NCBI RefSeq assembly: GCF_003334385.1
Contig: NZ_QOWN01000005.1
DNA from: Escherichia coli
GTDB lineage: Bacteria > Pseudomonadota > Gammaproteobacteria > Enterobacterales > Enterobacteriaceae
Direction: 5' to 3' (one strand)
DNA length: 64,000 nucleotides
Below the pieces are notes generated by a model that saw only the letters and a list, made by a program, of their open reading frames with translations, ran no database searches and was not told the DNA's origin. Within the stretch, counting starts at the first letter, position 1. Every line of letters begins with the position of its first letter. The position numbers and the translations under genes are program-made. Positions 4,715-6,779 of the stretch are shown here, one piece after another.

Positions 4715-5173
4715 TTATAGAGACAAGTCCTGCAGTCGCTCCGATAAGTCTCCGGTAGCCAACTGCTCTGCGTCGATATCTTCCTTGACCTGTTGATGCC
4801 AGGTTGTTTCATCCCACAGCTCAAACTTGTTGAACTGTCCAACCAGCATCACTTCTTTTGTCAGCCCGGCATGTTGCCGCAGTACTGGCGCGATTAACAA
4901 TCGACCTGCGCCATCCATCTGACATTCGCTGGCATGACCTAACAGTAGGCGCTGCACACGGCGCTCAACCGGGTTCATGCTCGACAGACGCGATAATTTT
5001 TGCTCGATAATTTCCCATTCAGGCAGGGGGTAAAGCAGCAGGCACGGGTGATAAATGTCAATGGTGCAAACCATTTGACCGGCAGCGTTCTCAAGCAGCT
5101 GTTCCCGATAACGGGTAGGCACTGATAAGCGCCCTTTGCTGTCGAGATTGACTAACGTTGCTCCCCGGAACAT
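4715..5173 (-). CDS. mraZ: Transcriptional regulator MraZ
   Basis: ORF track frame 4715..5209; 152-aa protein from [19 protein letters not shown]; first gene of dcw cluster. Confidence 0.9.
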
Positions 5174-5192
5174 GCCAGCCTCACCCCTTATT

Positions 5193-5217
5193 CCCACTTT
5201 GCCCCACAATTTCCCAC
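5193..5217 (-). promoter_or_regulatory. Three GTGGG direct repeats at 10-bp spacing in mraZ leader (MraZ operator / Pmra region)
   Basis: Minus-strand reading GTGGGaaattGTGGGgcaaaGTGGGaataagGGGTGAGG just upstream of mraZ ATG; plus-strand CCCAC at 5193-5197, 5203-5207, 5213-5217. Confidence 0.6.
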
Positions 5218-5774
5218 TGAAAGGAGTTTACGGAGCTGAGGAAAAGCTTGTCAAGCCAGTCACAAGGCATACCGAGGTAAAAAACCCGATGTTTACGGCT
5301 AATATCAGCGTTGTTTATTTTACGTCCAACGCGCGAAGCAAATTAACGTTATGAATAGCTGTAAGAAAAAATCCCTCATCGTCATCACCGTTTTAAAATG
5401 ACTCACTATTTTCCACAGCAAATATAAAGTGTCAGTTTGCGACGCGAGCGGCATTTTAGGACATATCTTCCCCGGTTAACAGTCCTTGTTACGTCTGTGT
5501 GGCGCTTGATGCCAGCGGGTTTGCGCAAAAGCAAAGAAAAGTGTTTGTTAAATCGGCAATTCATCGCCGCATGTAACAAAATAATGCAAAAACGCGCTGT
5601 CGATATCACTTAATTATTGTGAATTTCAGCTGGTGAGTTAATTAACGGGCGGGTTTAAAAGCATTTATCAATAATAGTCAGGAATAGTCTTATTTACTTT
5701 AAGCATATTGATGTCCAGTCCCGTACTCTACGCGCCAGAGGGAAATTCACCTGGCGCGTATTTTTGTTCGCGGC

Positions 5775-6779
5775 TTAGCTACGGCTGAGCACGCCGCGGC
5801 GATAGAGATTACGTTTAATGCGCGTTAAACCAGGTTTTGGCTTACGCGGTTCGTCCAGGCTTGCCAGGACAATCTCCAGCACACGCTCTGCGACATCGCG
5901 GTGACGTTGAGCCACTGCCAGCACCGGACACTGTAAGAAGTCGAGCAGTTCGTTATCGCCAAAGGTGGCAATTGCCAGGTCAGAAGGCAGTTTGCCGTCG
6001 CGACGCAGCGTGACATCCATCACTCCTTGCAACAACGCAAACGACGTTGTGAACAGCGCCTGCGGCATCGGATGCGTTTCCAGCCATTTTTCGAATAACT
6101 GGGCAGCCGCCTCCCGCTCATAGCTGTTGGCATACAGGAAATGCACTTCGCGCGGATCATCTTTCCAGGCAGTACGGAAACCTTGTTCACGCAGGAAGCT
6201 GACAGAAAGCTCCGGTAGCGCACCAAGATAAAGCACCGTCTCGGCGGGAAACTTACGTAACTCTTCCGCCAGCATTTCGGCATCATCCTGATCGGCACCA
6301 ACCACGCTGGTGAAGTGTTCACGATCGAGGGCGCGGTCCAGCGCGACAATCGGGAACGGGTCGTTAGCCCAGCGTTGATAAAAAGGATGCTCAGGAGGCA
6401 ACGACGTCGAAACAATAATGGCATCAACCTGACGCTGTAAAAGGTGCTCAATGCACCGCATTTCGTTGTCTGGCTGATCTTCTGAGCAGGCAATCAGCAG
6501 TTGATAACCCCGTTGCCGCGCTTGGCGTTCAAGATAGTTAGCGATGCGGGTATAGCTGGTGTTCTCCAGATCGGGGATCACAAGACCAATAGAACGTGTG
6601 CGTCCAGCACGAAGCCCAGCTGCCACGGCGTTCGGGTGGTAATTGTGCTCACGCACCACAGCCATGACTTTTTCAACGGTTTTGTCGCTCACACGGTATT
6701 GCTTCGCTTTGCCGTTAATAACATAGCTTGCAGTGGTCCGCGACACTCCCGCCAGCCGAGCGATTTCATCCAGTTTCAC
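5775..6779 (-). CDS. cra: Catabolite repressor/activator Cra (FruR), LacI family
   Basis: 334-aa [28 protein letters not shown] (LacI-type HTH) followed by periplasmic-binding-like effector domain. Confidence 0.95.

Follow-up and report, generated by a model that had tools for sequence, protein, structure and literature searches.

The MraZ operator at Pmra and conserved blocks in the cra–mraZ spacer of Escherichia coli

Across bacteria the DNA site of MraZ comprises three GTG(G/T) boxes spaced by six nucleotides; in M. genitalium one MraZ subunit occupies each box and transcription starts inside box 1 (PMC12957436). In B. subtilis these repeats – the MBRs – are required for repression by MraZ, and E. 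coli is cited as having the same arrangement (bioRxiv 10.1101/2022.02.09.479790). Our concern here is the cra–mraZ region of E. coli as it is found in a 64-kb stretch of DNA (64,000 nucleotides, analysed as a whole and hereafter called the window), in which the genes lie on the minus strand in the order cra, mraZ, rsmH, ftsL, ftsI. For this species Eraso et al. reportedly showed, in 2014, that purified MraZ binds three direct repeats between Pmra and mraZ, and in the same work MraZ is said to repress Pmra and an mraZ–lacZ fusion.

Within the window cra (fruR) occupies 5775..6779 and mraZ – a gene of 152 codons' worth of protein (152 aa) according to the list of open reading frames – occupies 4715..5173, both on the minus strand. 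The spacer between them measures 601 bp (5174–5774) and runs from the cra stop at 5775 to the mraZ ATG at 5173. The window is reversed relative to K-12, a K-12 coordinate being 94807 minus the window position; when compared with K-12 89033–89633 the spacer shows a single base difference, at window position 5332, and both the MraZ protein and the operator are identical to those of K-12. The 601-bp stretch was found in 5424 of 5426 complete E. coli genomes, at a median of one place per genome. No annotated feature lies under it, the curated K-12 record (NC_000913.3) shows no feature between cra and mraZ, and the cra–mraZ intergenic region is named in no paper found by our literature search. An earlier note, made from the letters of the window alone, had described the spacer as unusually long and AT-rich in places, and both descriptions hold: no spacer between genes of the same direction is longer in the corresponding stretch of K-12, where it ranks second overall, after the divergent leuL–leuO spacer (659 bp), and its GC content drops to 0.31–0.38 at approximately 5300–5450 and 5550–5750 as against 0.5–0.6 in the flanking genes.

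The operator and the leader of the main transcript

Read from 5217 to 5171, the minus strand is GTGGGaaattGTGGGgcaaaGTGGGaataagGGGTGAGGctggcATG, in which three GTGGG boxes (5217–5213, 5207–5203 and 5197–5193) follow one another at a spacing of exactly 10 bp. An exact match to GTGGGN5GTGGGN5GTGGG occurs once in the 64-kb window; with up to two mismatches permitted there is one more, which is this same site displaced by one repeat, where 0.10 would be expected by chance. The arrangement GTGG-N6-GTGG-N6-GTGG is kept in 79 of 79 Enterobacteriaceae spacers, with the boxes 43–45 nt before the ATG, or 52–54 nt in lineages that carry an insertion. Box 3 reads GTGG[T/C/A] outside E. coli, and among these 79 spacers its fifth base is G only in E. 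coli; the conserved unit is therefore GTGG, and the pentamer overstates it. That the mraZ ATG is preceded by three phased GTGGG repeats, and that these match the autoregulatory operator of MraZ, had both been claimed in the earlier note: the first claim is borne out by the sequence of the boxes, the second by their presence in all of the Enterobacteriaceae spacers and by the identity of MraZ and operator to those of K-12.

The boxes are followed by a G-rich Shine-Dalgarno region, GGGGTGAGG (5179..5187, minus strand), which ends 5 nt before the ATG and is nearly invariant in 79 species. The insertion is found at loci L053–L081 (Buttiauxella, Cedecea, Kosakonia and relatives), where 8–10 nt, most often exactly 10 (for example GGGGAATTTA), stand between box 3 and the Shine-Dalgarno region, aligned to 5188/5187. 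In consequence box 1 stands 52–54 nt from the ATG instead of 44 nt, a shift of roughly one helical turn.

The core of Pmra (5225..5254, minus strand) consists of a −35 hexamer TTGACA (5254–5249), an 18-bp spacer and a −10 hexamer TAAACT (5230–5225). A promoter scan returned 10 of 12 hexamer matches, making this a near-consensus sigma-70 promoter, and hexamers and spacer are almost invariant in 79 species. The main start lies at 5217..5219 on the same strand (K-12 89588–89590) and has been mapped by two cap-based methods: the strongest Cappable-seq start in the spacer is K-12 89590, that is, window 5217 and the first G of box 1, with a score of 27.2 (PMC4782308 supplement), and SMRT-Cappable-seq places the starts of mraZ–rsmH–ftsL transcripts at 89588 and 89589 (PMC6131387 supplement). 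Older mapping in E. coli gave a 5′ UTR of 38 nt (PMC5089854). The cap-based start sits 6–8 nt after TAAACT and fits the −10 hexamer better than does the 38-nt value. We take the older start to be window 5211 (K-12 89596), as listed in RegulonDB. With 38 nt in one source and 44–46 nt in the others, the placement of the boxes against +1 carries an uncertainty of about 7 nt; on either value they span the start and roughly the first 25 transcribed bases.

The leader of the main transcript is thus 44–46 nt long (38 nt by the older mapping), not 600 nt, and since the main start is at 5219–5217 the greater part of the 600 bp is situated upstream of the promoter. A 600-bp leader, as the earlier note had it, fails for the main mRNA; the description retains some truth for weak upstream starts, situated 274, 397 and 491 nt from the ATG, and for transcripts that read through from cra.

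Near-invariance of the 18-bp Pmra spacer (5231–5248, AAGCTTTTCCTCnGCTCCG) in the 79 species is unusual for a promoter spacer. The segment is C/T-rich and complementary, with many G–U pairs, to the G-rich operator and Shine-Dalgarno region (5179–5217). RNAalifold draws a hairpin from the two. Only read-through or long-leader transcripts could contain it, and in these it would mask the ribosome-binding site; no covariation was found for this hairpin.

Other factors have been reported in this region. A published PdhR gel-shift probe (PMC3265435 Table 4), which we placed by eye at 5231..5274 on the minus strand, overlaps the −35 hexamer of Pmra; ChIP-qPCR showed enrichment of PdhR at the mraZ upstream region, and the gel shift was described as ‘very weak’ (PMC3265435). 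A genomic SELEX study includes mraZ among new CRP targets, with no site given. Inside mraZ, window position 5024 (K-12 89783) is both a Term-seq 3′ end, 149 nt into the gene, and a weak Cappable-seq start, and a further Cappable-seq start is located at 89806; the coincidence at 5024 could reflect a processing or pause site within the mraZ mRNA. For Corynebacterium, RNase III cleavage inside mraZ is reported by a reference cited in PMC12957436.

The identity of the repeats follows from their composition, their location and their neighbour. There are three GTG(G/T) direct repeats at 10 bp centre-to-centre; they lie downstream of a −10 hexamer that ends at 5225, at transcription starts 5219–5217, immediately upstream of mraZ, where the dcw cluster begins; the neighbouring mraZ encodes both of the DXXXR motifs, which are DSKGR (residue 11) and DGAGR (residue 87), and its homologues carry PF02381. 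We are therefore highly confident that the GTGG repeats correspond to an operator already in the literature, through which MraZ represses its own promoter, Pmra (5193..5217, minus strand), with the boxes placed over +1 to +25 of the Pmra transcript.

The sequence and its conservation are direct observations, and the starts and 3′ ends are published; that MraZ binds the boxes is known from published work on E. coli K-12; the steric mechanism is our inference. RNA polymerase would use TTGACA-18-TAAACT (5254–5225) and start at 5219–5217, at box 1's first G or immediately next to it. The first gene's product, MraZ, is a ring-shaped oligomer that carries AbrB-like DXXXR motifs. With a box at every helical turn, each GTGG would be bound by a single subunit, and this occupancy of +1 to +25 would block either initiation or promoter escape. 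The predicted outcome is negative autoregulation of mraZ–rsmH–ftsL–ftsI and the genes that come after. The repeats amount to the rediscovery of a characterised autoregulatory operator and thus add nothing new; their usefulness is as a check, in that a reader provided with sequence only recognised a real operator correctly.

Conserved blocks and weak starts upstream of Pmra

For comparison across species the best 80 loci from a genome scan with MraZ were taken, all of which belong to Enterobacteriaceae. At each of the 78 loci that reach far enough upstream cra lies directly upstream of mraZ, and the lengths of the cra–mraZ spacers of these Enterobacteriaceae loci range from 553 to 733 nt. The four-fold degenerate sites of mraZ from the same genomes served as a neutral yardstick: here mean identity to E. 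coli is 0.56, with 18% of sites at least 90% conserved and 3% invariant. Among spacer positions 27% are at least 90% conserved and 15% are invariant, and the conserved positions occur in runs. Conservation of the spacer across enterobacteria, proposed in the earlier note as a check, stands out at Pmra and the operator (5257–5174) and, besides these, at four blocks – D, A, B and C – that are nearly invariant across genera.

Three observations concern the sampling. The proteins listed by a homologous-protein search with MraZ all have at least 84% identity. A metagenome pattern, GTCGCAAAC-N65-95-AAATATTCA, proved too loose: mraZ was present at 3 of 120 loci, all three from Enterobacteriaceae. Finally, locus L022 (CACSKA010000010.1), titled Chryseobacterium sp. 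18061, carries a typical Enterobacteriaceae cra–mraZ locus that is almost identical to the Citrobacter sp. 18056 locus (L020) from the same study, and is probably a case of contamination or mislabelling of a public assembly.

All four blocks are described on the minus strand. Block D (5664..5696) contains the palindromic TAAGAcTATTCCTg at 5692–5679 and a −10 element TATTAT at 5676–5671. Block A (5536..5594) reads TTTGTATTATTTTGTTACAT ... TGCCGAaTTAACAAACACTT and includes the inverted repeat TTGTTA / TAACAA (I3). Block B (5420..5482) comprises a conserved CTGTTA (5482–5477) and the −10 element TAAAAT (5458–5453), and Block C (5333..5369), TTTTTTCTTACAnnTATTCATAACGTTAATTTGCTTCG, is complementary to Block B and conserved from genus to genus. 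Blocks D, A and B coincide with same-strand Cappable-seq starts (PMC4782308 supplement): a weak start at K-12 89143 (window 5664, score 6.2), a very weak start at 89237 (window 5570, score 2.1) and a weak start at 89360 (window 5447, score 9.4), respectively. No start is reported on the minus strand for Block C. TAAAAT of Block B is invariant in 79 of 79 species, the 89360 start lies six nt downstream of it, and the first 28 nt transcribed from that start are nearly invariant. Within E. coli the segment from B to C is single-copy, and is at least 99% identical in 4251 of 5424 genomes, compared with 1357 for the whole spacer.

The cra end of the spacer is marked by a hairpin (5725..5760, minus strand; inverted repeat I1) with a 10-bp stem, 5760–5751 / 5738–5729. 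The 3′ end of cra determined by SMRT-Cappable-seq is K-12 89082, or window 5725 (PMC6131387 supplement); since this published end maps 4 nt past the hairpin, the hairpin at 5760–5729 is the cra terminator. Around it (5725–5768) there is an A-run upstream and no U-tract on the cra strand, and a T-run, TTTTTGTT, is present on the opposite strand. The hairpin sequence is not conserved, other genera having unrelated, canonical cra-sense terminators at the same position. The cra terminator hairpin is leaky, and a read-through variant, cra–mraZ–rsmH–ftsL, which crosses the whole spacer, has been published (PMC6131387 supplement). Because of this read-through and of the three weak starts, the whole spacer is transcribed at a low level toward mraZ. 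The Term-seq table contains no 3′ end in the spacer, but the cra terminator is also missing from it and its sensitivity is therefore low; no intrinsic terminator was found by our scan of the spacer.

The approximately 550 bp upstream are, then, the cra terminator hairpin and four conserved blocks rather than the leader of the main mRNA, and three of the blocks coincide with upstream promoters, weak and conserved, that are oriented toward mraZ. Any function of the blocks is inferred, and as unannotated conserved elements they constitute a modest side lead. Purifying selection acts across genera on about a quarter of this 600-bp spacer, which stands in front of the essential cluster of division and cell-wall genes, and this conservation coincides with weak published start sites where nothing is annotated. 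If the blocks turn out to act as regulatory inputs, they would be relevant to an old question, the coupling of dcw transcription to growth or envelope status.

Possible roles of the upstream blocks

A tentative but real possibility is that the upstream blocks are DNA sites for transcription factors at the dcw promoter region and have no function as RNA, with an RcsB-type dimer at Block D and another factor on the inverted B and C copies, possibly with looping. Block D is palindromic (AAGAATATTCTT in Citrobacter), its core T[A/C]AGA..ATTCCT is conserved, and positions 5692–5679 match 12 of 14 positions of the RcsAB consensus (TAAGAATATTCCTA), this being the only match in 64 kb with at most two mismatches. 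The consensus itself – TaAGaatatTCctA, the RcsAB box reportedly being due to Wehland and Bernhard in 2000 – was matched after Block D had been seen. When up to three mismatches are allowed, Block D matches the consensus in 31 of 79 species as against 0 of 79 in a control region. Moreover the inverted repeats of Blocks A, B and C never covary, as would be expected for protein-binding sites, and PdhR and CRP have both been reported at the mraZ upstream region. Against these points, the box at Block D spans −28 to −15 relative to the weak 89143 start, an atypical position for an activator, our literature search found no paper linking RcsB to the cra–mraZ spacer, and no factor is assignable to Blocks A, B or C. 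When the blocks were compared by eye with sites for sigma-54, sigma-E, sigma-28, CRP, LexA, PurR, Cra, ArcA and OmpR, and with DnaA boxes, none of these readings was convincing. Rcs acts on ftsA1p, further down the dcw cluster; to our knowledge no Rcs site has been reported in the cra–mraZ spacer.

It is also conceivable, though in our view doubtful, that the whole spacer is a functional, long and structured 5′ leader of mraZ, made from the upstream promoters or by read-through from cra, in which a stem-loop formed by Blocks B and C modulates expression of the dcw genes, much as UpsM in Rhodobacter or the actinobacterial mraW motif would. The two blocks are complementary (CGC/GCG, GCAAA/UUUGC, UGAC/GUUA, AUAUUU/AAAUAU), 94% of cells being paired by a formal pair count. 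On the 89360 transcript the predicted B/C helix would begin at +3 and enclose a stem-loop of 116 nt; it is the minimum-free-energy prediction in nearly all species. The sense strand folds with a mean z of −2.0 as against −0.9 for the antisense strand (dinucleotide shuffles), although the paired Wilcoxon p of ~1e-5 overstates the evidence because the sequences are phylogenetically related. Block B keeps a nearly constant distance to the ATG, and a leader of this kind could draw on what has already been described above: three same-strand starts within conserved Blocks D, A and B, an invariant −10 element at the 89360 promoter, and a published transcript that runs from cra through to ftsL. There is also the precedent of a long structured dcw leader in R. 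sphaeroides (PMC5089854).

Evolutionary changes in the sequence nonetheless fail to support an RNA helix. In an alignment of 78 sequences RNAalifold found 0 compensatory pairs; the covariation score of the B/C pairing was reached by 183 of 500 shuffles; and in the most divergent sequences (L070, L072 and L061) the 3′ strand of the helix has been lost without compensation. Transcription from mapped starts is a fact, yet all three of these starts – 89360, 89237 and 89143 – are weak, with scores of 2–9 as against 27 for the main start, and no operon in the SMRT-Cappable-seq data begins at any of them. Neither does the spacer match a curated RNA family: an Rfam 15 scan of 4900–6100 at E <= 10 gave only a chance match, to sR084, of 15 bits against a gathering score of 95. 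What the data show is conserved complementarity together with a mapped weak start. RNA structure is not proven by them, and two inverted protein-binding sites explain the same facts.

A more elaborate proposal, which we consider unlikely, is that the stretch from Block B to Block C (5333–5482) constitutes an unannotated Enterobacteriaceae regulatory module: a conserved, probably factor-dependent promoter (invariant TAAAAT, start at K-12 89360), the transcript of which would open with the 116-nt stem-loop and continue into Pmra and mraZ, with Block D adding an Rcs envelope-stress input. If such a module were real, the dcw cluster would gain a second, condition-specific input, in parallel to UpsM of Rhodobacter.

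The G-tracts of the repeats might in principle form a G-quadruplex, in DNA or in the RNA of the 5′ UTR, that controls expression of mraZ, but this is very improbable. The E. coli sequence GGG-N7-GGGG-N6-GGG-N5-GGGG does fit the canonical 4xG3 motif; this motif, however, occurs in 1 of 79 species, against 79 of 79 for the GTGG phasing. It is restricted to E. coli because box 3 is GTGG[T/C/A] elsewhere, and is lacking from the other 78 species, E. albertii included; the reading was rejected on these grounds. A plus-strand small RNA, antisense to the direction of mraZ and ending at the hairpin 5729–5760, is scarcely more than a theoretical prospect and was likewise rejected. What recommends it is a GC-rich 10-bp stem followed by a T-run on the plus strand only; yet the same hairpin is used on the cra strand by the published cra 3′ end, 4 nt past it, and the T-run orientation is specific to Escherichia, other genera having canonical terminators in the cra sense. 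In addition, no promoter-like site was found on the plus strand by the scan, and the Term-seq list, from which the cra terminator is also absent, has no 3′ end at the hairpin.

That the spacer encodes a small protein – by the 67-codon ORF, a 44-codon ORF or an ORF on the plus strand – has next to no probability, although small ORFs do exist in the sequence. The earlier note had listed a weak 67-codon ORF with no obvious ribosome-binding site, and its doubt was justified: the ORF is present (5406..5609, minus strand, GTG start) and no Shine-Dalgarno sequence precedes it, just 4 of 78 other species have a comparable ORF, stops or frameshifts interrupt it outside E. coli, and with no NCBIfam match to its name it was rejected as a gene. 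The 44-codon ORF (5320–5454, minus strand), which spans Blocks B and C, has a conserved N-terminus, MPLASQTDTLY, but this coincides with invariant Block B DNA in which there is no synonymous variation, and the ORF is interrupted by stops or frameshifts even in E. albertii. Across 78 species, on both strands, none of the ORFs in the spacer is maintained as such; all lack a Shine-Dalgarno sequence and an NCBIfam match, and none is annotated in the curated K-12 record. Since the small ORFs are unconserved and lack an NCBIfam match, conservation of the spacer is not protein-coding.

Comparison with described systems

The actinobacterial mraW RNA motif is, we take it, Rfam RF01746. Like that motif, and like UpsM and the extended dcw leader of Rhodobacter sphaeroides (PMC5089854), the upstream part of the E. 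coli spacer is conserved, non-coding, placed upstream of the dcw cluster and oriented in the direction of mraZ. It differs from both in that the main start in E. coli is 44 nt from the ATG and the upstream starts are weak; furthermore, the E. coli spacer shows neither covariation nor an Rfam match, and the Term-seq table, with its low sensitivity, gives no sign of a terminator-derived sRNA.

Block D resembles an RcsAB box in being palindromic and in the conservation of its core, AAGA..ATTCC. Unlike such a box, it overlaps the core of a weak promoter approximately 470 nt upstream of Pmra, and it is a candidate site.

It is the operator that has the closest counterparts. Compared with the MBR/Pmra operator of E. 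coli K-12, as reported by Eraso et al. in 2014, locus and sequence are the same, with three GTGG boxes between the −10 hexamer and the ATG, and nothing material differs; the cap-based +1 falls on box 1, corresponding to a UTR of 44–46 nt and not 38 nt. The operator of M. genitalium, known from cryo-EM (PMC12957436), has four boxes where E. coli has three and A-rich flanks where those of E. coli are G-rich, and its MraZ is an octamer, whereas E. coli MraZ is reported to be a dodecamer. The two operators are nevertheless alike in their GTG(G/T) boxes, set six nt apart, and in the start of transcription within box 1.
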